From a virus (Duplodnaviria; Caudoviricetes), in the IMG/VR virus record IMGVR_UViG_3300009424_000011, positions 1 to 64,000 of that record: a DNA stretch of 64,000 nucleotides, one strand, 5' to 3'. A model generated the notes under the pieces. The model was not told the origin of the DNA, searched no databases, and was given only the letters and a program-made list of their open reading frames with translations. This document shows positions 1 to 13,684 of this stretch, piece after piece (the stretch's first letter is position 1; each line of letters opens with the position of its first letter). A program made the translations under genes and the position numbers.

Positions 1-990
1 ATAGCGCTCCTTCCACTCGTTGATGGCATCCTTCTGGGAACCACCACGCTTGGCGAAGACGAAAGCTTCCTTGAGCGGGAACACCGCCCGGAACTTGGGC
101 ATCGGCTTGTGCTTGACGAGGATGACCACACCCTCTTCGGTGTGGTGGGCGTCGTCGATGATCTCCAGATCGTCAACGATCTGAGGCAAAGTGCCCTTGA
201 CCTTGATCAGGTAATCGCGAACAGCCTCTTCATCAACCTCACCTTCCTCGTTCCACTTGATGAAGTGGTCGCGCTTGATGACACTGGTGTCCTTGAGGTG
301 GCTGTGAGTCGTGTAGATGACGGCTTCCAGACCATACTTCTGGATGGTCTCCATCACATCCGTCAAGGGAGCGCCCGAATCGAGATCGACCCCAAGGATG
401 TGGTTCTCGATCATGGCAACAGCTTTGCGAGCGCCGTTGGCCGACTTCCCTTGTAAGAAGCAGGGACCGTCTTTCTGCCCTTCCTTGTGATCTTGCAGCA
501 CAGTTTCGAACTGGCCGAAGGTGCTGGAAATCTCTTTCCACTTGCCTTGGCCTTCGTCGCGGCGACGACCAGTCATGAGGGTGATCTGGCGATCCGATCC
601 CGGCGTTTTCAGGTCGAGGTCTTCCGGGAGATACCAGTTCAACCCGTCGAAGTCAGGCTTGCCCTTATGCATGAAGACGCTGAGAGGGCACATATGCAGG
701 CCCTGCTTCATGCCGGGGATCGGATCACCGTCGATCATGTAGATCATTCCGCCATCGACATCGAAGGACGGCTGAGGAACGACGACTTCCGGGTTACCAG
801 CTACGAAGACGCCCACGGCAAAGCCTTCGTCGGTGACGAGATCAATCCACGGGTCATCGGCATGGGAAGCGAACGCACCGACTTCGAGAAGGTCATCGCT
901 GGTGATATAGCTCCCGTCGGCTGCTTCGACGGTGACGGCTCCAGATGCACGACCCATCAGGTCGTGAATGAGTTGGGTGTAGGGGGTCAT
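1..990 (-). CDS. AEP-family primase/polymerase (N-terminal part; runs off the window edge)
   Basis: Missing from the ORF track; hand-translated from ATG 990: MTPYTQLIHDL...HILGVDLDSG...VIYTTHSH...KFRAVFPL, matching AEP motifs (DxD, YTTHSH, RxxxPL). Confidence 0.75.
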   Translation of the reverse strand, partial: MTPYTQLIHDLMGRASGAVTVEAADGSYITSDDLLEVGAFASHADDPWIDLVTDEGFAVGVFVAGNPEVVVPQPSFDVDGGMIYMIDGDPIPGMKQGLHMCPLSVFMHKGKPDFDGLNWYLPEDLDLKTPGSDRQITLMTGRRRDEGQGKWKEISSTFGQFETVLQDHKEGQKDGPCFLQGKSANGARKAVAMIENHILGVDLDSGAPLTDVMETIQKYGLEAVIYTTHSHLKDTSVIKRDHFIKWNEEGEVDEEAVRDYLIKVKGTLPQIVDDLEIIDDAHHTEEGVVILVKHKPMPKFRAVFPLKEAFVFAKRGGSQKDAINEWKERY

Positions 991-998
991 TGGTGACC

Positions 999-1445
999 TT
1001 ATGCTGTGAGGGAAAAGGACAGGCTGGTCACCGGGCCGCCTGTGTTCTTATCGTGCTTGGATGCCGCTTCGACGGCTTCCTCAGCGGAGGCTCCATGAGC
1101 CATGGCACCTAGCGCCAGTAGAGCGCCAGAACCGATTGCGGTGTAATCGGCAAAGATGGGGAGTAGATAACCGTTATCGAACTCGAAGAGATCGCCGGTG
1201 GTGTTGTCGATGATCAGGGCCGAGAAGTCGTTACCGTGATCGAGCAGAACTTGAGGAACGTCATCCTCAGGGCAACCACCAGCACACCAAGCTTCCAGAG
1301 GTCGTCGAAGCCATGCCGGACCAGCGAGGGCAACGGTGAACCCACCACACTTGGCGATCTTCTCGCGGGAGCCGTTGGTGATACTGGTGTAGGAGATCAA
1401 TGTATCGGCAGCCAGCAGGCCCGAGCGGTAAGCTATGGTCGTCAT
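999..1445 (-). CDS. Ntn-hydrolase, HslV/proteasome-beta-like peptidase
   Basis: N-terminal MTTIA, AADT, IGSG and D..TGG motifs. Confidence 0.7.
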   Translation of the reverse strand: MTTIAYRSGLLAADTLISYTSITNGSREKIAKCGGFTVALAGPAWLRRPLEAWCAGGCPEDDVPQVLLDHGNDFSALIIDNTTGDLFEFDNGYLLPIFADYTAIGSGALLALGAMAHGASAEEAVEAASKHDKNTGGPVTSLSFSLTA

Positions 1446-1569
1446 GTAGCGCTATCTCCAGAAGAGCGCCATGGTTAAGCTAGAATTGCCGTCATGTCAA
1501 GCAAGAATGTCGCACCTTGGACACACTGGACGGTTGTGGACAGCTACGGACGAAAATAATTTCCGCATG

Positions 1570-1605
1570 AATCGAAAGGCCCGGCCATCTTGCGACGGCC
1601 GGGCC
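1570..1605 (-). terminator. Intrinsic terminator
   Basis: Minus strand GGCCCGGCCGTC-GCAA-GATGGCCGGGCC followed by TTTCGATT. Confidence 0.7.
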
Positions 1606-1606
1606 A

Positions 1607-1776
1607 ATGCCGGGAGCTTCACAGCGAGTTGGAGACAGACCTTCATCTCCCGGCGGTAACTGGCGGGGGCCGGGCTACGAACCCGTCCACACGATCCTCA
1701 ACAATCCTCCGGGCACCCGGCGATCTCTTCTCGTGCTTCGGCCACTGGTTAAGGCCACTTCCCCGATAAACTCGAT
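1607..1776 (-). ncRNA. Putative structured ncRNA
   Basis: Lies between promoter 1783-1811 and a terminator; no convincing ORF; contains GGGTTCGTAGCCC...CCCCGCCA and a GCCGGGAG/CTCCCGGC stem. Confidence 0.45.
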
Positions 1777-1782
1777 GACAAA

Positions 1783-1811
1783 CAAATAGGATGATTCGTC
1801 CGGTTCGTCAA
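1783..1811 (-). promoter_or_regulatory. sigma70-like promoter with GANTC in the spacer
   Basis: TTGACG-17-TATTTG; spacer contains CGAATCA. Confidence 0.6.
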
Positions 1812-1821
1812 TAACTATTTT

Positions 1822-2013
1822 ACATCTCTTTCGCCAACGCCCCGACGTTTGGGCTGGGATTCGAACCCAGACGCCCGCGCCTTCCCACCATGGCTAGGAG
1901 GTTTACATCCCCCTGTTCCGGATTCGAACCAGAATATCAGCCGGGCCGCTCAGCCGTGACCCTCGCTTTCGACCGCCTAGAACAGTAGGACGAGACGTTG
2001 GCGAAAAAGATGT
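1822..2013 (-). ncRNA. Structured ncRNA with a 23-bp closing stem and two T-loops
   Basis: ACATCTTTTTCGCCAACGTCTCG pairs with CGGGGCGTTGGCGAAAGAGATGT (G-U pairs favour minus strand); two GGTTCGAATCC hairpins inside. Confidence 0.65.
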
Positions 2014-2014
2014 T

Positions 2015-2406
2015 GTCCCGAAACTGTTGCTACGCTCGGGACCACGCGCCACCTAGAGGTGTGAGGCCCTAGGGATTTTGTCGCTTACGCGGCGAGACGA
2101 ATCTCTTCGCTGGCGACGACCACATCATTGTCGTTGACAGTTGATGAATTTGATCCGCATACGGGCGGTATCTAAACGGGGCGCTTCTCCACATCGGCCT
2201 TACGGATCGATCCTAAATTCACCCCCATCAAAGAACCCCGCTGCCTTACAAAGGACCGTCGTCCAGAGCCTAGGCGGATCGTCACCCTGACCGCGTTTCA
2301 GGCGGCCGCAGGGGTCTTTGGTGGAGGTGCCGAGTTCTGCCCTCGGGTCTCCGCTTGACTTAGATGGCCTTCTACGACCGTAGTCTTCATGCCGAAGCAC
2401 TTGACG
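2015..2406 (-). ncRNA. ssrA: Two-piece (circularly permuted) tmRNA; tag (A)VNDNDVVVASEEIRLAA
   Basis: Acceptor piece ends GACCCGAGGGCAGAACTCGGCACCTCCACCA at 2319; intervening hairpin 2227-2318; coding piece starts GGGGGTG at 2226 with G3-U70; tag ORF 2138-2085 ends LAA-stop. Confidence 0.93.
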
Positions 2407-2412
2407 AGGAGA

Positions 2413-2441
2413 AGAATAAGCGATTCGCACATCACTGTCAA
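2413..2441 (-). promoter_or_regulatory. tmRNA promoter with GANTC
   Basis: TTGACA-17-TATTCT; spacer contains CGAATCG. Confidence 0.75.
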
Positions 2442-2466
2442 CTGAAAATTGAGAGCGCGTCGAAAA

Positions 2467-3045
2467 TCAGAGATAGGGCGAGGGCGAAGTCACCTTGACG
2501 CTGGCAACAAAGAGCGGTTGCGAAATGGCCGACAGCCGGTCAGCGAGGGCTCGCGAATCGATCACGAAGCGCGGCGATCGTGAACTGTATCCGGCCAGAA
2601 ACTCTGCTTCCGACAGAAGCTCTACGTCGGTCGCAGAGTGGAAGCGCATCTGGCGCTTGGCCGAGCCCGAGTGACAGCCAAGGGTGGTGGCAACGAAATC
2701 ATTGACCTTCGATTGCTCGCCGAAGAGGCTGGCGAAGAATCGGTTCTGTTCCTCAGGAGTGGCGTTGACGGTCCAGTTGTCCACATTCCGCCCCAGAACC
2801 ATGAGAGCCCCGGTCCGCAGACCCGGAAGCCAAGAACCAACCACGTTGCGTTCGACACCGAAGTCGGCCGCTGTGGAGTGAACCATCATGTTGAGAGCGC
2901 CGGAGACATCCACGGTCACCATCTGTCCGGTCAAGCCGGGCCATCCACTGTAAGAGGCGAAACGCTCAACGTCCTGCGAACTCTTACCAAGCAAGCGCTG
3001 TAGCTGGCTGATGCCGAATGTTTGCTGGCGAGCAGAAAATTCCAT
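2467..3045 (-). CDS. Hypothetical protein, possible N-terminal HTH
   Basis: 192-aa ORF with GGTGGA RBS and its own TTGACA promoter near 3080-3106. Confidence 0.6.
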   Translation of the reverse strand: MEFSARQQTFGISQLQRLLGKSSQDVERFASYSGWPGLTGQMVTVDVSGALNMMVHSTAADFGVERNVVGSWLPGLRTGALMVLGRNVDNWTVNATPEEQNRFFASLFGEQSKVNDFVATTLGCHSGSAKRQMRFHSATDVELLSEAEFLAGYSSRSPRFVIDSRALADRLSAISQPLFVASVKVTSPSPYL

Positions 3046-3113
3046 TAGTTATTCCACCTACATTTTTGAGAGACACATCGTTAAGATAAAAGCCAACGAT
3101 TGTCAATCGAAAA

Positions 3114-3449
3114 TTACGGTGTGGCGGGAGAGGTAGGAATCGAACCCACGTCAGCGGGTTTGGAATCCGCTGTCTTACCATTAGACGACACTCCCATAGT
3201 GCCAACCCGACCGCGAAGATAATCTAACGCTTCGGGGAGCCCGGTGATCGTCTGCCGGGCGACCACTGGGAAACGGATATTGATGTGGACGACATCGCCG
3301 AACACGCGGATCAAACCAGCACCGGGAAAACGTCCTCGGCCGGGCCGCCGGTTGTTCCAGCGGGTCCGCTTGTAGTGGGTGAACTCTTCGCCCTCGTGGG
3401 GAACTCCAAGGATCACAGCGCACTCAGCATAAAAATCGTCTACGTTCAT
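3114..3449 (-). CDS. Hypothetical protein whose 3' end reads through tRNA-Trp
   Basis: GAGGTG RBS then ATG; no stop codon before the tRNA. Confidence 0.55.
   Translation of the reverse strand: MNVDDFYAECAVILGVPHEGEEFTHYKRTRWNNRRPGRGRFPGAGLIRVFGDVVHINIRFPVVARQTITGLPEALDYLRGRVGTMGVSSNGKTADSKPADVGSIPTSPATP
3122..3195 (-). tRNA. tRNA-Trp(CCA)
   Basis: Cloverleaf; loop TTCCAAA; CCA encoded. Confidence 0.9.
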
Positions 3450-3463
3450 TTCACCTCATAATC

Positions 3464-3549
3464 TGGAGCCGCCCACAGGATTTGAACCTGCGTCCTTTCG
3501 GAACCTCCGGGTTGCAACCGGGTGCCTTACCAGACTCGGCCAAGGCGGC
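3464..3549 (-). tRNA. tRNA-Cys(GCA) with long variable arm
   Basis: Loop TTGCAAC; U73; variable arm GTTCCGAAAGGAC. Confidence 0.85.
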
Positions 3550-3553
3550 TTGA

Positions 3554-3596
3554 TTGACATATCATGTGAACTAAGCGATTTCACATGATATGTCAA
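3554..3596. repeat. Perfect 17-bp inverted repeat with TTGACA at both outer ends
   Basis: TTGACATATCATGTGAA-N9-TTCACATGATATGTCAA. Confidence 0.85.
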
Positions 3597-3634
3597 AGCA
3601 TATATTATCGGGTGGATATATGCTTCAACGTATG

Positions 3635-3722
3635 TGGAGGAAAGCGGGGGCATCGAACCCCTGACCCCGAAGGGTCACGACAGCGTTCCAAGCTGATTAG
3701 GGAGCCGACCCACGCGCTTTCC
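3635..3722 (-). tRNA. tRNA-Ser(GGA), 8/4 fold
   Basis: 8-bp acceptor GGAAAGCG/CGCTTTCC; 4-bp T stem; loop TTGGAAC; long variable arm. Confidence 0.85.
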
Positions 3723-3730
3723 ATATGTTG

Positions 3731-3818
3731 TGGAGGAAGGTGGAGGCATCGAACCCCTGACCCCGAAGGGTCACCCCGGCTTAGCAAGCCAGTTGAGGAG
3801 CCGACCTCGGCACCCTCC
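3731..3818 (-). tRNA. tRNA-Ser(GCT), 8/4 fold
   Basis: 8-bp acceptor GGAGGGTG/CACCTTCC; 4-bp T stem; loop TTGCTAA. Confidence 0.85.
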
Positions 3819-3824
3819 TCTAAT

Positions 3825-3900
3825 TGGAGCCGTTTGTCGGAATCGAACCGACTCTTCTCTCCCCTACCAAGGGAGTGCAGTCCCAGCTTGCTCAAACGGC
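3825..3900 (-). tRNA. tRNA-Thr(GGT)
   Basis: Loop TTGGTAG; cloverleaf; CCA. Confidence 0.85.
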
Positions 3901-4041
3901 GTTACTTGTTACAACCTCCAGCCATAAACTGACGATCGATCTCTTCGACCACGTTGAACAGGGAACCATCAGGTTCAACCAGAACAAACGTGAACTCCCC
4001 GATCTGCCGCACAGTGCAGCGATGGATCGGAGCTAAATTTT

Positions 4042-4115
4042 TGGATGCCCCTGTTGGGATCGAACCAACGTCTTCGCCTTCAAAGGGCGCTGACTTACCA
4101 TTAGCCGAAGGGGCA
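4042..4115 (-). tRNA. tRNA-Gln(TTG)
   Basis: Loop CTTTGAA; U1-A72. Confidence 0.9.
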
Positions 4116-4165
4116 TCAGGTTGGTCAGTTTGTTCGTCAAGAACTTCCATAACTAACTCCATAAT

Positions 4166-4240
4166 TGGATGCCCGAGCAGGGGTCGAACCTACATTTCAG
4201 GATTCAGAGTCGAGCGACTTGCCAATTAGTCGATCGGGCA
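4166..4240 (-). tRNA. tRNA-Gln(CTG)
   Basis: Loop CTCTGAA; two mismatches in the anticodon stem. Confidence 0.85.
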
Positions 4241-4256
4241 ATTGTTCCACGGCTTA

Positions 4257-4332
4257 GGGGTGACCGGCGGGATTCGAACCCGCCATCTCCGGCATCACAA
4301 GCCGGCGCATCATCCATCTCTGCCTCGGCCAC
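4257..4332 (-). tRNA. tRNA-His(GTG)
   Basis: Loop TTGTGAT; C73; ends CC(T); G-1 not encoded. Confidence 0.85.
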
Positions 4333-4354
4333 ACCTAAACCGTGGAACATTATC

Positions 4355-4429
4355 TGGAGCCGGATGAGGGAATCGAACCCTCGTCTTCGCGTTACAAAGG
4401 CGCTGCTGCTACCACTGAGCTAAACCGGC
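4355..4429 (-). tRNA. tRNA-Thr(TGT)
   Basis: Loop TTTGTAA; cloverleaf; CCA. Confidence 0.85.
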
Positions 4430-4444
4430 ATTGAACTTCATATC

Positions 4445-4529
4445 TGGTGGGTGCGGTGGGACTCGAACCCACAAAGCGGCCGAATTTTAAGTCCGGTGAG
4501 TCTACCAATTCCCCTGTCGCCACGCACCC
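4445..4529 (-). tRNA. tRNA-Leu(TAA), atypical fold
   Basis: Loop CTTAAAA; A73; short variable region; insertion before the D arm. Confidence 0.8.
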
Positions 4530-4543
4530 GTAGCTTGTTGTGT

Positions 4544-4626
4544 TGGTCCGCGATCCCGGACTTGAACCGGGAAGCCTAGGCCACGCCCTCTCAAGACGCT
4601 GCGTTTACCAATTTCGCCAATCGCGG
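4544..4626 (-). tRNA. tRNA-Leu(GAG)
   Basis: Loop TTGAGAG; variable arm; A73. Confidence 0.9.
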
Positions 4627-4634
4627 ATTTAAGT

Positions 4635-4718
4635 TGGTGTGAGCGGGGAGACTCGAACTCCCAAAGCTACCGGGTCTGAGCCGGCAAGGTATACCATTCC
4701 CTATGAAGCCACGCTCAC
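4635..4718 (-). tRNA. tRNA-Leu(CAG), atypical fold
   Basis: Loop CTCAGAC; same insertion architecture as Leu(TAA). Confidence 0.8.
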
Positions 4719-4762
4719 GTAACTCTTATTAAGCTCCTGTATTCACAGGTATTCTCCTAAAA

Positions 4763-4855
4763 TGGTGGGTGACCGAGGACTCGAACCTCTCGCCATCCGT
4801 CCCCCACGTTCTGAAACGGCACCGGGGTTACAGGCCGGCAGGGGGAAGATCACCC
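4763..4855 (-). tRNA. tRNA-Tyr(GTA), rearranged (no conventional D arm)
   Basis: Loop CTGTAAC; acceptor and T arm with ACCA; TCCCCC near the 5' end pairs with GGGGGA after the variable arm. Confidence 0.7.
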
Positions 4856-4867
4856 GAAACTTGTGAT

Positions 4868-4907
4868 GAAACGAAAATAGCGCCAGAACCCGGTGGGCTC
4901 TGACGCT
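4868..4907 (-). terminator. Attenuator terminator, operon C
   Basis: AGCGTCAGAGCCC-ACC-GGGTTCTGGCGCT followed by ATTTTCGTTTC. Confidence 0.75.
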
Positions 4908-4917
4908 CTGAAAATGC

Positions 4918-5014
4918 TGGAGGAGCGAGTGGGATTTGAACCCACGGAACACATCTCTCGATGGTCCAACGGTTTTCGAGACCGCCGCAATAACCCAGAC
5001 TCTGCCACCGCTCC
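4918..5014 (-). tRNA. tRNA-Ser(CGA)
   Basis: Loop CTCGAAA; long variable arm. Confidence 0.9.
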
Positions 5015-5049
5015 TCTTGGAAAGAGAGCAGCGCGTCAGGGCTGCTCCC

Positions 5050-5133
5050 TTAGAAGGGTGACAGGGAACTATACTGGCTATGCCAGCATAGTAAGGAGCC
5101 CGTAAGGCTTTGCAAGGCGGTCTGTGTGAACAT
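5050..5133 (-). CDS. Leader peptide C, MFTQTALQSLTGSLLCWHSQYSSLSPF
   Basis: ATG lies 7 nt after the -10 box (apparently leaderless); 21 of 26 non-initiator codons are Ser/Leu/Thr/Gln/Cys/Trp/His/Tyr, the downstream tRNA set. Confidence 0.85.
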   Translation of the reverse strand: MFTQTALQSLTGSLLCWHSQYSSLSPF

Positions 5134-5140
5134 GCTGCGA

Positions 5141-5169
5141 AGTATATGGAAGGAAGTTAAAGGAGTCAA
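5141..5169 (-). promoter_or_regulatory. sigma70 promoter of tRNA operon C
   Basis: TTGACT-17-TATACT; GACTC overlaps the -35; A-tracts upstream. Confidence 0.85.
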
Positions 5170-5211
5170 CACTTATTTTTGCTGACGGTGTTTTTTTTTT
5201 TGATCTGGGCG

Positions 5212-5281
5212 TGGAGCCCCCGGCCGGAGTCGAACCGACGCCTTAGAGCTTAGAAGGCTCATGGCCCGCCTCGGCGGGGGC
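5212..5281 (-). tRNA. tRNA-Arg(TCT) with truncated D arm
   Basis: 70 nt; loop CTTCTAA; perfect acceptor; CCA. Confidence 0.75.
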
Positions 5282-5288
5282 GGTGATC

Positions 5289-5363
5289 TGGTGCAAGAAG
5301 ATGGGTTCGAACCACCGACGCGTAGGTTTTCAACCTACCGCTCTACCACTGAGCTATTCCTGC
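5289..5363 (-). tRNA. tRNA-Phe(GAA)
   Basis: Loop TTGAAAA. Confidence 0.92.
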
Positions 5364-5369
5364 AATCTC

Positions 5370-5445
5370 TGGTGCCGCCTCAGGGACTCGAACCCCGGTC
5401 TTGGGCTTCGGACGCCCGCGCTCTCTCCAGTTGAGCTAAAGCGGC
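5370..5445 (-). tRNA. tRNA-Arg(CCG)
   Basis: Loop GTCCGAA. Confidence 0.88.
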
Positions 5446-5456
5446 ACTGACTTATC

Positions 5457-5530
5457 TGGTAGCCCTACCGGGGCTCGAACCCGGTTTCTCGCCGTGAAAG
5501 GGCGGACTCTTACCCATAGAGGATAGGGCC
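5457..5530 (-). tRNA. tRNA-Glu(TTC)
   Basis: Loop CTTTCAC. Confidence 0.9.
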
Positions 5531-5538
5531 ATATAAAT

Positions 5539-5615
5539 TGGTGGTCTGCGAGGGAGTCGAACCCATCAACCTTCCGCTTCGTAGGCGGTTGCTCTTCCAG
5601 TTGAGCTTCCAGACC
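5539..5615 (-). tRNA. tRNA-Arg(ACG)
   Basis: Loop CTACGAA. Confidence 0.88.
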
Positions 5616-5634
5616 GAACTCGTAAACTAATTCA

Positions 5635-5708
5635 TGGAGGCCCTACCGGGGCTCGAACCCGGTTTCTCACCGTGAGAGGGTGGACTCTTACCCATAGAGG
5701 ATAGGGCC
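5635..5708 (-). tRNA. tRNA-Glu(CTC)
   Basis: Loop CTCTCAC; near-duplicate of Glu(TTC). Confidence 0.9.
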
Positions 5709-5766
5709 TCATATGGTCATATATGGCACACAAGACGGGCTTGTAGGTCATATCTGACCGGTTAAC

Positions 5767-5875
5767 TGGCGCAGCAGCCGGGATCGAACCGACATCTTCC
5801 GGTTCTTCGCCCGGCCATCCTAGTCCCAGAGGTCATGACACTCTGTCCCCGTTGTCGGGGATTAGACGATACTGC
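5767..5875 (-). ncRNA. tRNA-like RNA with two extra hairpins in the D loop and an 8-nt anticodon loop
   Basis: T arm GTCGG-TTCGATC-CCGGC; GCCA end; 6-bp acceptor. Confidence 0.6.
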
Positions 5876-5879
5876 AAAC

Positions 5880-5954
5880 TGGCGACCGTGACGGGATTCG
5901 AACCCGCAACCTTCGGATAGACAATCCGCTGCCCAACCGTTGGGCTTCACGGCC
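5880..5954 (-). tRNA. tRNA-Asp(GTC)
   Basis: Loop TTGTCTA; G73. Confidence 0.9.
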
Positions 5955-5966
5955 AATAATAAGTGA

Positions 5967-6042
5967 TGGAGCGGCCGGCGGGGATCGAACCCGCGCTGAC
6001 GGAGGGTGGAAGCCTCCCGCTCTACCGCTGAGCTACGGCTGC
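5967..6042 (-). tRNA. tRNA-Gly(TCC)
   Basis: Loop CTTCCAC; U73. Confidence 0.9.
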
Positions 6043-6070
6043 ATCATCACTCATCACTAACAACTTCGAC

Positions 6071-6145
6071 TGGAGCGGGTAGCGGGGATCGAACCCGCGA
6101 CCTTCTACTTGGCAAGCAGGCGCTCTACCACTGAGCTACACCCGC
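6071..6145 (-). tRNA. tRNA-Gly(GCC)
   Basis: Loop TTGCCAA; U73. Confidence 0.92.
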
Positions 6146-6171
6146 ATCTAGTCGTAAACTATTGATATTCT

Positions 6172-6247
6172 TGGTAGACCGAGTGGGGTTCGAACCCACG
6201 ACCTCAAGATTAAAAGTCCCGCGCTCTGCCTACTGAGCTACCGGTCC
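6172..6247 (-). tRNA. tRNA-Lys(TTT)
   Basis: Loop CTTTTAA. Confidence 0.92.
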
Positions 6248-6265
6248 ATGCCAAGAACCAGCCGG

Positions 6266-6304
6266 GAAACGAAAAACGCCCCACCGGGCGACCGGTAGGG
6301 CGTT
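6266..6304 (-). terminator. Attenuator terminator, operon B
   Basis: AACGCCCTACCGG-TCGC-CCGGTGGGGCGTT followed by TTTCGTTTC. Confidence 0.8.
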
Positions 6305-6322
6305 CAAAAATCGATGTCGTTT

Positions 6323-6398
6323 TGGTGGACCTTGTAGGGCTTGAACCTACCACCTTGCGGTTAAGAGCCGCCTGCTCTACCTACTGAGCTAAAGGTCC
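6323..6398 (-). tRNA. tRNA-Lys(CTT)
   Basis: Loop CTCTTAA; A73. Confidence 0.92.
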
Positions 6399-6434
6399 GT
6401 CAAAACGACACCGATAGCTCTACGCACTACCGGG

Positions 6435-6497
6435 TTACGAGGTGAAACCTCGTTCTTCGCCTCTCCGGCGATCTCGTTTGGTAAATCCGTAGGTCAT
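6435..6497 (-). CDS. Leader peptide B, MTYGFTKRDRRRGEERGFTS
   Basis: AGGA upstream; 14 of 19 non-initiator codons are Lys/Gly/Asp/Glu/Arg/Phe, the downstream tRNA set. Confidence 0.85.
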   Translation of the reverse strand: MTYGFTKRDRRRGEERGFTS

Positions 6498-6550
6498 AGC
6501 AGTTACTCAAAATCCTGTTTGGTGGACACTGTGTCCGTTGTTGAAGCCGA

Positions 6551-6579
6551 ACTATATGTGATTCGATTCGTTATGTCAA
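6551..6579 (-). promoter_or_regulatory. sigma70 promoter of tRNA operon B
   Basis: TTGACA-17-TATAGT; tandem CGAATCGAATCA in the spacer. Confidence 0.88.
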
Positions 6580-6608
6580 CACAAAAATCACACTGGCGTA
6601 TTTTTAAT

Positions 6609-6785
6609 TTACCCTGCGAGGAGGGGCGGCGTCGCCAATTCGAACTCAGCCCCAGTCGCCGTGGTGGCAATGATCCGGTCACCCTTGGCTTCGATGTCAG
6701 CGACGTTGACGATCTTACCGCACGAATGAGTGATGGTCATACCAGCACCAGCCCGGCGGATTTTCCAGCTATACAAAGTGTTCAT
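6609..6785 (-). CDS. Small hypothetical protein (58 aa)
   Basis: AAAGGA RBS before ATG (MNTLYSWKIRR...). Confidence 0.6.
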   Translation of the reverse strand: MNTLYSWKIRRAGAGMTITHSCGKIVNVADIEAKGDRIIATTATGAEFELATPPLLAG

Positions 6786-6847
6786 GTCGGTTCCTTTAGC
6801 ATGATTGCTTCGGCCGACAATAGGCCAAATTTTGGCCGTGTCAAGTA

Positions 6848-6925
6848 TGGTGGAGCCGGTGGGAATCGAACCCACCTCACAGACCTTGCAAGGGTCCGTC
6901 GCCTTCCCTTGGAACATGCGACCCC
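6848..6925 (-). tRNA. tRNA-Ala(TGC)
   Basis: Loop CTTGCAA; G3-U70; atypical D arm. Confidence 0.85.
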
Positions 6926-6931
6926 AAACTG

Positions 6932-7006
6932 TGGTGCTTCGTGAAGGTGCTGCCCCTCCTACCTCTGCCTTGTCACGGCAGCGCTCTACTGGTGAGCTAA
7001 CGAAGC
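6932..7006 (-). tRNA. tRNA-Val(GAC), non-canonical T loop
   Basis: Loop GTGACAA; T loop GGCAGCA. Confidence 0.8.
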
Positions 7007-7007
7007 G

Positions 7008-7081
7008 TAATCCCGGTAGGATTTGAACCTACGTTTCATCTCTTATGAGGAGAGAGCTTTAGACCACTAAGCTACAGGATC
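7008..7081 (-). tRNA. tRNA(CAT), Ile2 or Met
   Basis: Loop CTCATAA; CCA not encoded. Confidence 0.8.
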
Positions 7082-7083
7082 AA

Positions 7084-7473
7084 TTATTTCTTATACCAGC
7101 CATTCAGGCTCGGATTGTGGTGTTCGATATGGCAATTATGACATAACACAACACATTTGGCGAACTCTTTCATTATAGTTTCTTCTTTGTGATTCGAAAG
7201 CTCTCTTAAAGTAAGCTCGAAACCTTTTGAAGTCTCATCTGTATGATGAAAACACAAAGCAGCTAGATTATCTCTGTAACCACATTCTTCACAACCACCT
7301 CCTCGAAGGTTTATCAACTCCATTTTTCTTTTCAAGCCTCGGGCTTGTTGTTTTTCGTAGAGTTGATTCCTCACATTACCGTTTTTGTTCTGACATGCTC
7401 GTGAGCAAAACTTGGTCTGTTTACCAGTCAATTCCGTTTGGCAAGTCAGACATAAGACGTTCATCTCTGTCAT
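7084..7473 (-). CDS. HNH endonuclease inserted in the tRNA array
   Basis: CxxC...FCSRAC, CEECG, FHH and LCHNCHIEHH motifs; AT-rich relative to flanks. Confidence 0.85.
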   Translation of the reverse strand: MTEMNVLCLTCQTELTGKQTKFCSRACQNKNGNVRNQLYEKQQARGLKRKMELINLRGGGCEECGYRDNLAALCFHHTDETSKGFELTLRELSNHKEETIMKEFAKCVVLCHNCHIEHHNPSLNGWYKK

Positions 7474-7781
7474 TAAAAATCCAAACGAGCGACGTATTTT
7501 CCTTCGCCGATCGTGTCGAGGTAACCATCGCGCTGGGCTTCCCAGCCAAGTCCGCGATCTGCTACCTCTACCGCCAAGAGCGCGTCGCGATTGTCCCGGT
7601 TATCAGCGGTCAAATCCGCTTGGGCCAGTGCGACACCTTCCTGATAGTCCGAGAGAAACTGCCCATCATGCGATCTCGACCAATGTTCCCGGACACCTTT
7701 CCATGTGGTATCAGACGGGCCCGGATCGGTCTCCCGGAGTTTTCGTCCGGGTCGATCGTAGCTGATGTTGTAGCGTTCCAC
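7473..7781 (-). CDS. Hypothetical protein
   Basis: AGGAG RBS; 102 aa; stop overlaps the HNH start. Confidence 0.6.
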   Translation of the reverse strand: MERYNISYDRPGRKLRETDPGPSDTTWKGVREHWSRSHDGQFLSDYQEGVALAQADLTADNRDNRDALLAVEVADRGLGWEAQRDGYLDTIGEGKYVARLDF

Positions 7782-7796
7782 TCACTTCTCCTAAAT

Positions 7797-7880
7797 TGGC
7801 TCGGCGGGGAGGGGTCGAACCTCCGCCCTTTCGGGGACACCGGTTAACAGCCGGGCACATTACCACTCTGTCACCACCGA
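7797..7880 (-). tRNA. tRNA-Asn(GTT) with long variable arm
   Basis: Loop CTGTTAA; U1-A72; G73; variable arm GTCCCCGAAAGGGC. Confidence 0.85.
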
Positions 7881-7888
7881 ACATAAAC

Positions 7889-7976
7889 TGGTAGCGAGAC
7901 CTCAACCTACTGATCAACCGGGAGTGCGAGTCGTCAACTCATCCGCCGGCCGAATGTTCGGTCTATTAGTCTCGCT
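7889..7976 (-). ncRNA. CCA-terminated non-cloverleaf RNA
   Basis: 9-bp stem AGCGAGACT/GGTCTCGCT followed by ACCA; no T loop. Confidence 0.55.
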
Positions 7977-8027
7977 CTTACAGGGAGACTAACCCCTGCG
8001 TCCTCACCCCGTCAAGGGTTTGGTAAC

Positions 8028-8105
8028 TGGTCCACAGAGCAGGGCTCGAACCTGCGCAAGACGCCGATTATCGGTCGGCCGCTCTACCAACTGAGCTATC
8101 CGTGG
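8028..8105 (-). tRNA. tRNA-Ile(GAT)
   Basis: Loop CCGATAA (C33). Confidence 0.88.
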
Positions 8106-8106
8106 A

Positions 8107-8182
8107 TGGTTGGTGATGCAGGCTCTGCCCCTGCCGCCTCTGGTATGTGACACCAGCGCTCTCCTGAATGAGCTAATCACCA
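8107..8182 (-). tRNA. tRNA-Val(CAC), non-canonical T loop
   Basis: Loop GTCACAT; T loop GGCAGAG. Confidence 0.8.
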
Positions 8183-8212
8183 ACAAACTCTTTGTCCCAT
8201 CCGATTTGACGG

Positions 8213-8323
8213 ATGCCGGGGACGAAATCAACAAGGCGCTCTAACCACCTGAGCTACACCGGAGCCTTGCCCCGGTGGCCGGATTCGAACCGGCGTCCTC
8301 CTCGTTCTACAACCGCCCCGCAT
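8213..8323 (-). ncRNA. Circularly permuted tRNA mimic (YrlA/Y-RNA-like)
   Basis: Order is T arm, loop-closed acceptor stem, D arm; the 5' and 3' ends pair in place of the anticodon arm. Confidence 0.7.
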
Positions 8324-8461
8324 ACGCCGGTTAATTACTCCGGCTTAGACGCGTCTCAACGAGACGGTTCGAAACGTCCCAGTGGTTTTACTAGCTCCGC
8401 TGATCGTGCGGGGCACCTGACGATCTCGGCGATCGACGAGGAGGTGGCTGGGTCACCTATC

Positions 8462-8532
8462 TGGTAGCAAAGGGTGGATGTGCGCCACCGGGTCAAAGGC
8501 TTATGAGGCCCCGCCCCCACTGAGGCTCTGCT
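8462..8532 (-). tRNA. Degenerate tRNA-Met(CAT)
   Basis: Loop CTCATAA; ACCA; tiny D arm; T loop CGCACAT. Confidence 0.6.
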
Positions 8533-8538
8533 ATAACT

Positions 8539-8617
8539 TGGTCAGGCGGGCAGGATTCGAACCTGCGATCCCCTCCGTCCGAGGGAGGTAGGGACGGCCA
8601 GACTCCCCTACCGCCTG
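8539..8617 (-). tRNA. tRNA-Pro(CGG)
   Basis: Loop CTCGGAC; C1-G72; A73. Confidence 0.9.
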
Positions 8618-8629
8618 ATACTCTTGAAA

Positions 8630-8705
8630 TGGTCAGGATCGTAGGGCTCGAACCTACGGCCTTCCGGTCCCAAACCGGACGCTCTTCCAACTGAGCTAGA
8701 CCCTG
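8630..8705 (-). tRNA. tRNA-Pro(TGG)
   Basis: Loop TTTGGGA; C1-G72; A73. Confidence 0.9.
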
Positions 8706-8742
8706 AAACGAAATCGGGGGCCATGTTGCCATGGCCCCCGAT
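8705..8742 (-). terminator. Attenuator terminator, operon A
   Basis: ATCGGGGGCCATG-GCAA-CATGGCCCCCGAT followed by TTCGTTTC, abutting tRNA-Pro. Confidence 0.85.
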
Positions 8743-8771
8743 CGAGATAACTGCTTGGAGAGTGAAGTGGC

Positions 8772-8861
8772 CTAGCCACCAACCATCTGTTCGCACGCCA
8801 TCGCGACCGGGACCATAATGGCCGGTGCTGCTGGGTTATTCATGGCGACTACGTTGAACAT
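8772..8861 (-). CDS. Leader peptide A, MFNVVAMNNPAAPAIMVPVAMACEQMVGG
   Basis: AGGA upstream; 22 of 28 non-initiator codons are Asn/Val/Ala/Met/Pro/Ile, the downstream tRNA set. Confidence 0.88.
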   Translation of the reverse strand: MFNVVAMNNPAAPAIMVPVAMACEQMVGG

Positions 8862-8913
8862 GGTTGAACTCTGAAATCCTGTTTGGCCGGAACATCCCGG
8901 TCTTGATGATCGA

Positions 8914-8942
8914 AGTGTAACGACATCCGATTCGAATGTCAA
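8914..8942 (-). promoter_or_regulatory. sigma70 promoter of tRNA operon A
   Basis: TTGACA-17-TACACT; CGAATCG in the spacer. Confidence 0.88.
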
Positions 8943-9130
8943 CTAAAAAATTGCACTCACCCATTTTATCTGGTTTCGGAGCAGGGCGGCTCCTTTAACT
9001 CTCTGTCACCTGCTTGAGGATTCAAGGGGCTCCATGGAACCCACAGGAACTAAATGCGAGGATATTCGAACCACCCTTGGTTACCTACCGGGTCACCCCT
9101 GCGGACAGGGAAGTGAGAAAAACTCGAACA

Positions 9131-9488
9131 TCACTCGCAACAAGGAGAGCGGACTAAAGTTCGCGAATCATCCGTCCCGGTTTCCCGACGGTGCCCGCCT
9201 CCCTTGTTGCAAGTGAAACATCTGTGATCAGGCCGGCGGCCAAAGCACTAGCAACACCCATACACGGTTTTTATCCGGGTCTGTCGTCTCCGTTCGACGG
9301 GAGTCCACTCGCCTTAAACCTATCTGGTGCCGCCGGCCCGATCACAAATGGATCACTCGTAATGGGGCCTCTCGAAGCTCGGCCGGGTTCACTACGCCCT
9401 TCCTTCCGCCGGTTCAGTGTAAACCCACGGATCGCCGGTTAGGTCGCGTGACCGCCGACATTCCGCTGAGAAGCTTCATTACGAGTGA
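9131..9488 (-). ncRNA. Three abutting stem-closed ncRNA modules (9131-9216, 9219-9350, 9353-9488)
   Basis: Each is bounded by a roughly 17-22 bp terminal inverted repeat; 2-nt spacers between modules. Confidence 0.65.
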
Positions 9489-9495
9489 AGCGTTA

Positions 9496-9664
9496 TGGAG
9501 CCCGGAGGTGGAGTCGAACCACTGGCCTATCGTTCCACAGGAGATCAACCCTGCTTTCCGATCCACCGCGCCGCTTTCGAAGGCGACTTCACCTAAACAT
9601 CCCTGACCAACTCCCGACAACTTTCCATGGAAGCTACCAATCTGTTGTGGCGGTTACTCCGGGC
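9496..9664 (-). ncRNA. 169-nt tRNA-like RNA (acceptor plus T arm with a large insert)
   Basis: GCCCGGAG/CTCCGGGC followed by TCCA; T arm GTGG-TTCGACT-CCAC. Confidence 0.65.
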
Positions 9665-9667
9665 TAT

Positions 9668-9848
9668 CGTTTTCTATGATGACCCAGCGGGTTTGCAGCG
9701 ACGCCCAATGCGATCAAGCCACGGCTCGAATTACTGGACCTGATGCTTCGACGATCCGTCTGCATTCGAGAATTGCTGGGATCGACCTGACCTGCGGGAA
9801 CCGAGGGGAAGGTAGCTAACCTTCTTTGCTGGGCCAACATAGAAATCG
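9668..9848 (-). ncRNA. Stem-closed ncRNA module
   Basis: CGATTTCTATGTTGGCCCAGC pairs with GCTGGGTCATCATAGAAAACG. Confidence 0.6.
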
Positions 9849-9853
9849 AAAAA

Positions 9854-10200
9854 TGGAAGCAGGTTGAGATTACACCCGCTACGATCCGTCATTCGTCAGA
9901 TTATAGTGACCTTGCGAGTCACCTTCCCGACTTATCCACCAAGCCCCTTGCGGTAGCTCAGTTCCAGACCAACGCCGCCTTTTTCTCCCGGTTCTCACGG
10001 GACCGCTGGCATTTGCGGTGACACTGCATGATATTCGGCAGTTTCGATTCCGCTGACTGTCTCCAGCCATTAAGGGCTTGCGGGCCCAACGAAACTTCTT
10101 CCACCAACCAACCATCACCTTGCGAGATCAGGTCGGGCCACATTGAGGCAAGCCTCTATGGCATTAGGCGTCTTTCACATGCAGTCGTGGCAATCTTTGC
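9854..10200 (-). ncRNA. Large structured RNA, possibly GOLLD-like
   Basis: About 350 nt non-coding directly after a tRNA; five CGCAA(G) motifs consistent with GCAA tetraloops; 3' GGGTGTAATCTCAACC. Confidence 0.45.
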
Positions 10201-10203
10201 GTT

Positions 10204-10279
10204 TGGAGCAGACTGGTGGGTTTGAACCACCGATCTCACGATTAAGAGTCGTTTGCATTACCAACTATGCTAAGTTTGC
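10204..10279 (-). tRNA. Second tRNA(CTT), nominal Lys, with U73
   Basis: Loop CTCTTAA; cloverleaf; TCCA end. Confidence 0.8.
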
Positions 10280-10418
10280 AAGGTTATCCCGGTGAAGCGG
10301 TCCTCGCGGACCTGACTGCGCTTGCCTGAATTGACCGATCGGGACCGGCGGGGTTAAGTGGCCTTACCCCCTTTATGTGAGTTGCCTCACACTATCGCCA
10401 TCAGGCTGGCATTCCGTC

Positions 10419-10447
10419 TCTCTATTAGGTGATTCGATTCGTGTCAA
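10419..10447 (-). promoter_or_regulatory. Promoter of the ncRNA cluster, double GANTC
   Basis: TTGACA-CGAATCGAATCACCTAA-TAGAGA. Confidence 0.65.
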
Positions 10448-10459
10448 CACTTAATCAAA

Positions 10460-10692
10460 TCAACTCGTCGAGATATTCCATGACTTACCGCGTGACAGGA
10501 CCACTTGCGCTGGCTTGGCCTATCGTGCTGGGGGCCGGTGATCTCGGGGCTTCCCCCGTTCTACCCGCCCTTGACACGAAACGTATCCGCACCAGACCGG
10601 CCAATGACTCGCTCGCGCCCAAGTTCGACGCTGCGGGGTCAGAGTGACTCCGGCTGTTCCTGCCCCTCGGAAAACCATGGAGCAGACGTTGG
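10460..10692 (-). ncRNA. Putative ~230-nt ncRNA with paired ends
   Basis: Own promoter at 10699-10727 (TTGACA-17-TAATTC); TCCATGGTT/AGTCATGGA and GCAGGA/TCCTGT pairings; no convincing ORF. Confidence 0.5.
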
Positions 10693-10771
10693 AGGGCCGA
10701 ATTACCGATTCTCACTGTCAGTGTCAACATAAAAATGACAGTCAGTGAAAATTATTTGGCTCTCACTATAA

Positions 10772-10804
10772 GGAAAGGGCCGCCACCTTCGTGACGGCCC
10801 TTCC
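10772..10804 (-). terminator. Intrinsic terminator
   Basis: GGAAGGGCCGTCAC-GAAG-GTGGCGGCCCTTTCC. Confidence 0.6.
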
Positions 10805-10814
10805 GTTTGCGTGG

Positions 10815-11396
10815 TTACGCCTTGATGTCAGGCGTGCCACGCCAGATGCGAAGACCTTCGACCTTGGGGCCCTTGCCATTGACCTGCTCGTAAACCGTGC
10901 GGCTCCAGAACAGGCACTTGTGGCGCTTGCGGGCAGCAGAAAGCTTGCCCTCGGCCTTGTCAGTCATCGGGATGAAGAACGAGAGACCAACGATCTGTCC
11001 GTTCTCATCCTTGTAGGCGGGCGGAAGCTCGCCGAACGGGTATTCCTCGACACCAGCCGGCCGGCCGGAACGTCCGACCATCACAGCTTCGGTGATCAGC
11101 ACCTGCTTGGTGCCGCCGCGAAGCTCTTCGACCGGAGCGGACTTACCGGAAGCCGAAGCCCCCTGCTTTTCCATCACCGGAGCAGCGGCATCTGCCTGAC
11201 GCTGCTTGCCCAGACCAGTAGCGGCCTTGGCGCGGGTCTTGGGAGCCGCCTTGGCACGGGGCTTCGAAGCGGCCTGCTGCTGCTTCTCGCTCAGTGCCTT
11301 GGAGGCTTCGTTCGCAGCGTCGAGGGCTGCCTGATCGATCTTCTTGCGCCCACGGGCGGGGGTTTTCACTGCATTCGTCATGTCTGTATCCTCCAT
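10815..11396 (-). CDS. Basic Lys/Ala-rich putative DNA-binding protein
   Basis: Histone-like N-terminus; C-terminal YPF...SFFIP...RIWR domain; start may be the second Met. Confidence 0.6.
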   Translation of the reverse strand: MEDTDMTNAVKTPARGRKKIDQAALDAANEASKALSEKQQQAASKPRAKAAPKTRAKAATGLGKQRQADAAAPVMEKQGASASGKSAPVEELRGGTKQVLITEAVMVGRSGRPAGVEEYPFGELPPAYKDENGQIVGLSFFIPMTDKAEGKLSAARKRHKCLFWSRTVYEQVNGKGPKVEGLRIWRGTPDIKA

Positions 11397-11455
11397 TTGT
11401 TGTCGGTGATTCGTTCTCTATGACGCTCCACCTAGTTGGTCAAGAAAAAAGTTTG

Positions 11456-12082
11456 TTAGAGTGCCATCACCATCGCAGATGCATCTTCGGTGAGTTCGAT
11501 ATACGCTTCGGTAGTTTCCATCCGAGCGTGACCCATCAACCGCTGAACGTCACGAAGTGAGCAGTGGTGAGCGTTAGCTGTTCGGGCAAGCTGGGTTCCA
11601 AAAGTTCGGCGACCCGAGTGAGTGGAAGCGCCTTCGAACCCGAACGACTTGAGCATCTTGAGATAGTAAGTCTTCAAGGCTTCCGGGGACATCTGCTTGA
11701 ACTCAGCATCTTTCGGGATCGGCCGGCCCCGTGCCAGAATCCAACGGAAGGGCTGCGAAGAAATCGCAACGAACTTGGCGTTGGGATATTCCTCGCGGAA
11801 CTCTTCCAGACAGGTTCTGATCAGGGGGTTCATCGGGATGTCACGCATCCGCTGCTTCTTACCAACATCGGAAAAGATGTTGATCTGCTTGGCGATAGCG
11901 CCATCGACATCGGTCATCGCGCTGATCTTGATCTTGGCGATCTCACCGACACGCAGCCCGGCCTTGAATGACAGAGCCACAATCAGCTTGTCACGCTTGG
12001 GCATGACGCTGTGGGTTTCGATGTGAGTAAGCAGCCGATAGAACTGCTTCTCATCGAAGGTCTTGGCACGCTTGATAGCCAT
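11456..12082 (-). CDS. Tyrosine recombinase (catalytic domain only)
   Basis: GLRVGEI, HSGRRTF and LMGH...TEAY motifs. Confidence 0.9.
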   Translation of the reverse strand: MAIKRAKTFDEKQFYRLLTHIETHSVMPKRDKLIVALSFKAGLRVGEIAKIKISAMTDVDGAIAKQINIFSDVGKKQRMRDIPMNPLIRTCLEEFREEYPNAKFVAISSQPFRWILARGRPIPKDAEFKQMSPEALKTYYLKMLKSFGFEGASTHSGRRTFGTQLARTANAHHCSLRDVQRLMGHARMETTEAYIELTEDASAMVMAL

Positions 12083-12116
12083 AGTGTTTCACTCCTTTGT
12101 TGCTTTCGGTAATCGC

Positions 12117-12145
12117 GAGTTAAGGCGATTCGCGATTCGTGTCAA
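12117..12145 (-). promoter_or_regulatory. Recombinase promoter, double GANTC
   Basis: TTGACA-CGAATCGCGAATCGCCT-TAACTC. Confidence 0.65.
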
Positions 12146-12170
12146 CAAATAAGTGGAAAAACTACTGGAC

Positions 12171-12563
12171 CTACGAGAACACCGAGAATGGTGGGGTGGG
12201 TAGACCTTCTTCCAAATAGGAAAGATGATGGTCAATGCGGCGCACGGCGAGGATCAGCTTGGCTGCCTCAGCGTCATACACCTCTTTCATCATGTGGCAA
12301 TGATCATAAAGCCGGTTGATGTAGTCCAGTTTCAGAAGCGCCAGATGTTTCACCGCCGCCACCAAGATCGGACTCTCTTCCTCGACTACCAATGTGAAGT
12401 CATAGTCCACAGTCAGGTCGATCACCTGCGGCTGCATGGTTTCGCCGATAAATCTGATACGATCGATGTTCGAGCAACCATCAGGTCCGTTCGCACGGTG
12501 ATCGGTGATCAGCGCATCGTGGATTTCTTCCAAGGTCATTACCGGGCCTTCGGACATGCACAC
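12171..12563 (-). CDS. Hypothetical protein
   Basis: ORF with phage-like codon usage; start uncertain. Confidence 0.55.
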   Translation of the reverse strand: MCMSEGPVMTLEEIHDALITDHRANGPDGCSNIDRIRFIGETMQPQVIDLTVDYDFTLVVEEESPILVAAVKHLALLKLDYINRLYDHCHMMKEVYDAEAAKLILAVRRIDHHLSYLEEGLPTPPFSVFS

Positions 12564-12711
12564 CGCTCATATTCAGGATCGGAGGAGTCGATCAAGGCAC
12601 CCTGCCAGTCGGGGCAGAAGTGAAGGGTTGGGTTCAGGAAACGGCACTCATCAGGGATGACCCCATCCCGTTCGATTTCGTTGCACTTGGTGGGGCTCAA
12701 ACCTCGTGGCA

Positions 12712-12930
12712 TTACGCAGTCTCCTTGCGGTGGCATCCGTGAACTGGACAGTCTTGGTGGTAGCGGACATACACCTTCCAGCGGTGCTTCTCGCGCTTCT
12801 CGTCATAGATGCGTTCCACCACGTCGATCCGCTTGTCTTCCGGGACCTTACCTTGACACAGGCAAGCGTCTTCATCCCAATCCGTGGGGAGTGGGGTGGA
12901 AGAAATAACCGAACCTTTTACGATCTTCAT
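12712..12930 (-). CDS. Small Cys/His-containing hypothetical protein
   Basis: MKIVKG...CLC...HQDCPVHG. Confidence 0.5.
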   Translation of the reverse strand: MKIVKGSVISSTPLPTDWDEDACLCQGKVPEDKRIDVVERIYDEKREKHRWKVYVRYHQDCPVHGCHRKETA

Positions 12931-13025
12931 GGAGAACTCACCGACATTCTGAGTTCGCACCATAGCAATTTTGAGTTGACAGTGCAAGCTAATTCGTCTA
13001 GCTGGTAACCGAATCAGGAGAACTT

Positions 13026-13520: not shown

Positions 13521-13684
13521 GTGAGGCACACCACACCATCACGCTCCAACACGATCCAGACAACCCGGCGGCAGTAGCGTTGGTTGATCGCATATATGCG
13601 ATGATCATGCCAGAATGCGTCGGCATCAGCACCTGTTGGGAAGACGGGATCGAAGAGCATCGTTTCCGTATCGCTGGTTAAGTC

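Follow-up and report, generated by a model that had tools for sequence, protein, structure and literature searches.

A leader reading frame in a phage tRNA array that probably allows tRNA production only when its codons are read slowly

Amino-acid operons are controlled by leader-peptide attenuators, some of which are multivalent (i.e. thrL for Thr/Ile and ilvL for Leu/Val/Ile). The pheL leader is likewise a leader-peptide transcription attenuator (PMC3082878), and leaderless polycysteine short ORFs act as cysteine-responsive attenuators in mycobacteria (bioRxiv 10.1101/834739). No published account of such control of tRNA genes was found in a search of the literature that included phage genome papers. 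The benefit of tRNA genes to the phages that carry them, and the regulation of these genes, are open questions. Codon usage, shut-off of the host and evasion of tRNA-cleaving defences are among the reasons that have been proposed (PMC11555353). A unit of a phage tRNA array (i.e. unit C) is described here whose short leader ORF (i.e. ORF C), as judged from its sequence, probably lets the phage make tRNAs only when the codons of this ORF are read slowly.

Unit C lies in a 64-kb window (i.e. the whole stretch of DNA analysed), which is part of a 96.8-kb uncultured-virus record. Among isolates, XM05 and vB_EliS-L02, both CbK-like Erythrobacter phages, are nearest to it. The minus strand from 2000 to 10300 is an RNA-gene region in which 27 tRNAs were called by ARAGORN at default settings, with several non-canonical tRNAs being seen only at a lowered ARAGORN threshold. 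The array is divided into three units (A, B and C), each driven by a promoter. The putatively gated block of unit C (minus strand, 3122-4855) comprises 13 tRNA genes beyond a terminator, as assigned using ARAGORN and alignments of relatives. The first, tRNA-Tyr(GTA) at approximately 4855-4763, was recognised only by alignment to the tRNA-Tyr called in relatives. Three Leu genes follow: tRNA-Leu(CAG) (4714-4636), which was missed by default ARAGORN and found at an 85% threshold; tRNA-Leu(GAG) (4626-4544), called by ARAGORN; and tRNA-Leu(TAA) (4529-4445), which ARAGORN at 85% calls Gly(ACC) and which was identified as Leu(TAA) by alignment to the called genes of relatives. Next come, in order, the Thr(TGT), His, Gln(CTG), Gln(TTG) and Thr(GGT) tRNAs, all called by ARAGORN, and then tRNA-Ser(GCT) (3818-3731) and tRNA-Ser(GGA) (3719-3639), both missed at default and found at 85%. 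The last two genes of the block are tRNA-Cys and tRNA-Trp (ARAGORN), and all of these genes are on the minus strand. Including tRNA-Ser(CGA), which precedes the terminator, unit C contains 14 tRNA genes for eight amino acids (Ser, Tyr, Leu, Thr, His, Gln, Cys and Trp). The Tyr gene and two of the Leu tRNA genes look structurally unusual, and two small protein ORFs are present among the gated genes.

Other features of the array region were also recorded. Small protein ORFs occur among the tRNA genes on the minus strand at 7084-7473, 7473-7781, 3902-4162 and 3114-3449, one of them overlapping tRNA-Gln(TTG). None of these four had a Pfam match (E<=0.01), and no Pfam match was obtained for two ORFs just downstream of the array (2467-3045 and 999-1445). 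A two-piece (permuted) alpha-type tmRNA is located on the minus strand at 2014-2445 (Rfam RF01849, 75.9 bits for a gathering score of 50); a homologous tmRNA gene was called by ARAGORN in relatives, and the tags end in ...RLAA. A GOLLD-like RNA (minus strand, 9861-10307; 122 bits, under the gathering score of 150) has tRNA-Lys(CTT) embedded at 10204-10279, and a weak YrlA/Y-RNA-like match (37.5 bits; gathering score 69) falls within unit A at 8216-8319 on the minus strand. A promoter scan found no promoter-like site on the minus strand from 4868 to about 3600. Just upstream of tRNA-Cys, a palindromic pair of TTGACA boxes (3555-3600, both strands) represents a possible internal promoter of unit C; near this gene the scan lists only a plus-strand site at 3580-3608.

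The coding content of the leader was examined against the tRNA genes of its unit. ORF C (minus strand, 5133-5050) has 27 codons followed by TAA (5052-5050) and encodes the peptide MFTQTALQSLTGSLLCWHSQYSSLSPF. The original prediction held that it samples eight amino acids, and this was borne out: 21 of the 26 residues after Met belong to the set {S,Y,L,T,H,Q,C,W}, i.e. the amino acids of unit C's tRNAs. Dinucleotide shuffles gave 13.6 +/- 2.2 in-set residues, with only 2 of 5000 reaching 21, and the five other frames gave 7-11, such that the enrichment is specific to the ORF C frame. Leaders A (ATG at 8861) and B (ATG at 6497) matched their own tRNA sets at 22 of 28 and 14 of 19 residues, respectively. 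A 3x3 table of the three leaders against tRNA sets A, B and C produced a chi-square of 67 (p=9e-14), and the observed diagonal was reached by none of 300000 residue permutations. The amino-acid sets of the three units partition all 20 amino acids.

Codon choice within ORF C was a less clear signal. The inventory of five Leu codons, three Thr codons, both Gln codons, four Ser codons and single Cys, Trp, His and Tyr codons was confirmed. The description of some of these as rare codons in a GC-rich genome held for the codons, as TTA and CTA each make up 4% of Leu codons and TCA and AGT make up 9% and 10% of Ser codons, but not for the genome, with the window having a G+C content of only 55.7%. 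Sensing at the level of isoacceptors, as had been suggested from this codon usage, is weak. The statistics were marginal, with 22 distinct codons among 26 as compared to 19.2 +/- 1.4 expected (P=0.049) and a low codon-adaptation index (P=0.03), and the rare TTA was found in only three homologues and is not conserved. By our reading, 19 of the 21 in-set codons are readable by the tRNAs of unit C itself, the exceptions being CTA and TCA.

Conservation was assessed in 13 loci containing unit C, which were found by searches anchored on the neighbouring protein and on ORF motifs outside the loop and terminator discussed below. ORF C is carried by the Erythrobacter phages vB_EliS-L02 and XM05 and by a Lacusarx-like Sphingobium phage; one locus, L053, is a Lacusarx-like genome of 130,138 bp. 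The ORF was open in all 13 loci with a length of 22-27 codons. Indels within it were all multiples of 3, as compared to indels of 1-2 nt in the flanking spacers, and a 1-nt loss at the stop (TAA-G to TAG-G) retained a stop codon. Between 81 and 96% of the residues were in the set across the 13 loci at peptide identities of 36-100%, and each of Trp, His, Tyr and Cys was present at least once in every copy, in permuted order. When aligned residues differed, both were in the set for 74% of pairs, as compared to 36% for random non-synonymous single-base changes. As the set was retained while identity dropped to 36%, these alignments demonstrate, so far as can be read from sequence, selection on the composition of ORF C rather than on its peptide sequence. 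Conservation of composition only would be expected of a decoding sensor and not of a functional peptide. Two observations concern leaders of the other units. In L014 (1828-3079), unit A also has tRNA-Thr(TGT) and tRNA-Arg(TCT), and its leader begins Met-Thr-Thr and contains Arg; from this single case, a leader may track tRNA content. An extra Ile-like tRNA in unit B of L002 is not mirrored in the L002 leader.

A hairpin within the reading frame bears on whether ORF C is a sensor at all. Hairpin 1 (minus strand, 5092-5068; 11-bp stem and 3-nt loop) spans Leu, Cys, Trp, His, Ser, Gln and Tyr codons and formed in all of the 12 loci folded (L057 left out; z of -2.0 to -4.7), with arm sequences that differ between loci. 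L053 (861-1136) differs from L013, L014 and L043 by a swap of the Trp and Cys codons (TGC...TGG as compared to TGG...TGC) that leaves the palindrome and the amino-acid set intact. This hairpin may act to pause the polymerase or as a 1:2-type element. Since it constrains many codons of ORF C, the open frame and its composition could be by-products of RNA-structure constraints in a unit that lacks regulation, where fixed tRNA ratios result from a strong promoter, structure in the 5' leader and a terminator that leaks. Such an origin is very unlikely, however, given that the enrichment is specific to one frame and absent from dinucleotide shuffles, that the match of leader to tRNA set recurs independently in all three units, that only in-frame indels are seen with the positions of stop and ATG being conserved, and that substitutions remain in the set.

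The start of ORF C lies unusually close to its promoter. A sigma-70-type promoter (minus strand, 5169-5141) matches 10 of 12 consensus positions and consists of a -35 box, TTGACT (5169-5164), a 17-nt spacer and a -10 box, TATACT (5146-5141), with an A-rich tract upstream at 5200-5170. Both hexamers were kept and the spacer varied freely in alignments of 12 loci. The position of the ATG (5133-5131) 7 nt past the -10 box, without a Shine-Dalgarno sequence, agreed with the original prediction; only seven variable bases separate the two, leaving no room for such a sequence. This spacing was 7 nt in 12 of 13 loci and 9 nt in L014, the base before the ATG was a pyrimidine in all 13, and in several loci there was no purine in the last few discriminator bases ahead of the ATG. 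The sigma-70 holoenzyme starts transcription 6-9 nt after the -10 box with a pyrimidine at -1 and a purine at +1. The A of the ATG, as the eighth base after the -10 box, is thus the expected start, and the mRNA of unit C is presumably leaderless. Promoter geometry therefore makes leaderless initiation at 5133 plausible. Among Alphaproteobacteria, leaderless mRNAs are common and efficiently translated, and in Caulobacter they are translated as well as leadered ones (PMC4117421). A longer, GTG-started version of the ORF from 5172 was rejected as its start is upstream of the -35 box. Counting against the proposed control, the stretch between unit B and the unit C promoter showed no terminator, and transcripts entering from unit B would carry ORF C without a ribosome-binding site.

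The other end of ORF C is similarly constrained. The stop codon directly abuts hairpin 2 (minus strand, 5049-5024; 8-nt loop), whose 9-bp stem begins with the first base after the stop, and did so in all 13 loci. Compensatory changes were present in five of the nine stem pairs and 96% of cells were paired. A ribosome with a stop codon in the A site protects approximately 9 nt past the stop, as estimated from bacterial footprint sizes; the 5' arm of hairpin 2 would hence be fully covered and, as stop and hairpin abut in every locus, a terminating ribosome must melt it. The predicted embedding of a tRNA between hairpin 2 and the terminator was verified by ARAGORN, with tRNA-Ser(CGA) at 5014-4918 on the minus strand (Rfam tRNA, 50 bits) and at the same position in all homologues. 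The intrinsic terminator (minus strand, 4907-4868) has a 13-bp stem (4907-4879) and a T-rich tail, ATTTTCGTTTC (4878-4868), and separates ORF C and tRNA-Ser(CGA) from 13 of the 14 tRNA genes. Its stem energies in homologues were -19 to -27 kcal/mol and four of 13 pairs were compensatory (12 loci). The terminators of all three units share the tail TTTCGTTTC (minus strand, 4868-4876, 6266-6274 and 8705-8713), of which four copies occur in the 64 kb as compared to 0.66 expected; the fourth (59147-59155) was dismissed as chance, being inside an ORF of 1182 codons.

Unit C combines, as an attenuator does, a start-proximal ORF with a usable start codon, codon enrichment and an intrinsic terminator before the gated genes. 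On account of the composition, conservation, start spacing and stop position of ORF C, its function as a ribosome-read attenuator for tRNA genes would appear well supported. We consider it fairly probable that ORF C is a leaderless 27-codon sensor on which the progress of ribosomes gates 13 tRNA genes by attenuation.

The sister units provide a model for how this might operate. Unit B (minus strand, 6579-6266) consists of a promoter, a codon-matched ORF, a stop-abutting hairpin, an embedded tRNA-Lys and a terminator. The strand after its stop pairs with the terminator 5' arm across tRNA-Lys, with 97% of cells paired and three of 11 antiterminator pairs compensatory, and an inner leader-trailer helix has compensatory changes in 10 of 15 pairs. 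In truncated folds, the unit B antiterminator formed in the free and stalled states but not with a ribosome on the stop codon. The antiterminator strand of unit A corresponds to ORF codons 15-20. As units A and B both exhibit antiterminator strands, a design of ORF, tRNA and terminator with a stop-adjacent switch strand is real in this array. Units B and C have the same element order and TTTCGTTTC tail. They differ in that unit B has a 5' UTR of about 50 nt whereas unit C has none (i.e. is presumably leaderless), and in that the unit B antiterminator has 11 + 15 bp supported by covariation whereas unit C has only an invariant 7-bp match, making C the least explicit copy of the design among the array units. 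The leaders of A and B (minus strand, 8885-8862 and 6522-6498) were also observed to share, within their 5' UTRs of about 50 nt, a common hairpin and a motif, CCAAACAGGATTT, located 12-16 nt before the ATG.

By analogy with unit B, ribosome progress on ORF C would set how frequently polymerase passes the terminator that follows tRNA-Ser(CGA). A decoding stall within ORF C would leave hairpin 2 folded, and its loop could then pair with the base of the terminator 5' arm to form a pseudoknot spanning the folded tRNA, resulting in readthrough. Ribosomes reaching the stop would instead open hairpin 2, the terminator would form and only tRNA-Ser(CGA) would be made. One difficulty is distance: approximately 150 nt, including the whole tRNA, separate the stop of ORF C from the terminator, which would require a ribosome to remain on the stop codon for seconds. 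This classical sign (i.e. stalling leads to readthrough) and its wiring are favoured only tentatively for unit C, from the analogy.

The central step of this scheme is the pairing of the hairpin 2 loop with the terminator. This loop carries CTGACGC (5039-5033), which is invariant in 13 loci and, as had been proposed, is complementary to the terminator 5' arm at 4906-4900. An antiterminator role gained from the complementarity, with the 7-bp match intact in 11 of the 13 loci, but not from the pattern of change: no pair was compensatory, one was broken, and in L053 and L057 the arm had changed alone. Covariation was not possible for this pairing because both 7-mers are invariant. In L053, an A to T change in the arm was compensated in the terminator's own 3' arm with the loop unchanged, leaving five contiguous loop-arm pairs, and no other partner for the loop was found in this locus. 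The last arm base was changed in L057, shortening the helix, again with an unchanged loop. Among leader segments, the loop was the best partner of the terminator 5' arm in 11 of 12 loci (L053 being the exception and L057 left out). Duplex energies in the first 11 loci were -13 to -18.6 kcal/mol, with P values of 0.007-0.26 for shuffled arms. An extension flanking the duplex gave no sign of co-evolution (own pairs, -16.6 kcal/mol; cross pairs, -17.7 kcal/mol; P=0.99). One loop base is free on the 5' side of the duplex and none on the 3' side. The stereochemistry of H-type pseudoknots allows stacking on a hairpin with such a loop, and this geometry would suit an H-type pseudoknot stacked on hairpin 2. 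Full-length minimum-energy folds of unit C kept the terminator in every ribosome state. Truncated folds (i.e. cut before the terminator 3' arm, and made with ViennaRNA, which fails to fold the tRNA cloverleaf) exhibited no consistent switch across homologues and, for a ribosome that releases the loop, suggested the reverse sign. No conserved helix flanking tRNA-Ser was found in unit C of the type that flanks the tRNA in unit B. A specific pairing between the hairpin 2 loop and the terminator arm is doubtful on these data.

Invariance of the loop in 13 loci, even where the partner arm has changed, together with a stem that covaries freely, as expected of a displayed loop, could be read as the signature of a site for a phage or host factor (i.e. 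nut/boxB-like processive antitermination), the complementarity to the arm then being incidental. We judge such a site quite unlikely, however, as the loop motif is nowhere else in the array and, with 12 copies in 64 kb, is as frequent as expected by chance, units A and B are without it, no Rfam antitermination family was matched and the composition of ORF C would not be accounted for.

Pairing between the reading frame and the tRNA itself was also detected. RNAalifold paired the 3' end of ORF C with the 5' acceptor strand of tRNA-Ser, at -18.8 kcal/mol and P<=0.01 in the close relatives of the window. In addition, AGACCGCC within the ORF (5123-5116) is perfectly complementary over 8 nt to the anticodon stem of tRNA-Ser, on the 5' strand of that stem (approximately 4987-4980); the core of this match, AGACC/GGTCT, is invariant in homologues and the chance of a match is about 0.1. 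These contacts, together with the persistence of the terminator in all minimum-energy folds, would fit a translated sensor whose output is the folding, processing or stability of the tRNA-Ser precursor, through competition of ribosomes with the pairings between leader and tRNA, with the terminator acting as a fixed leaky divider. The duplex at the end of the ORF was, however, weak in distant homologues (P 0.03-0.23) and showed only one-sided changes. An output confined to the precursor would furthermore leave unexplained why ORF C is not limited to Ser but covers the amino acids for which the 13 genes past the terminator supply tRNAs, and we hold it to be unlikely. Attenuation of the 13 downstream genes is the preferred reading. 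In its fullest version, decoding speed for eight amino acids would be measured on the leaderless ORF, a pseudoknot switch with an embedded tRNA would decide on the 13 further tRNA genes and, together with units A and B, closed-loop control would extend over all 20 amino acids; this version is put forward tentatively, as a possibility of some substance.

If attenuation of this kind is confirmed, phages would sense a shortage of tRNAs and respond to it, and leader-peptide attenuation would reach beyond enzyme operons into the machinery of translation. The switch could then answer depletion of host tRNAs or tRNA-cleaving defences. Unit C is directly testable in cultured systems (i.e. vB_EliS-L02, XM05 and the Lacusarx-like Sphingobium phage).

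Unit C was compared with several described systems. T-box riboswitches similarly couple tRNA status to terminator readthrough upstream of genes of the translation apparatus, but bind uncharged tRNA directly and without an ORF; no Rfam T-box match was present in 1-14000 of the window at E<=1. The mycobacterial polycysteine ORFs resemble ORF C in being leaderless, short, first-cistron ORFs that sense amino-acid supply through ribosome progress. They respond to one amino acid and precede protein-coding operons, whereas unit C involves eight amino acids, tRNA genes and an intrinsic terminator, and belongs to a phage with an alphaproteobacterial host. The attenuators thrL, ilvL and pheL have in common with unit C a short, promoter-proximal ORF enriched in the relevant codons and followed by an intrinsic terminator, with hairpins where the position of the ribosome can matter. 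These attenuators gate enzymes whereas unit C would gate tRNA genes; relative to them, unit C samples eight amino acids from an ORF without a 5' UTR, and has a complete tRNA gene between ORF and terminator and an antiterminator that is only putative.
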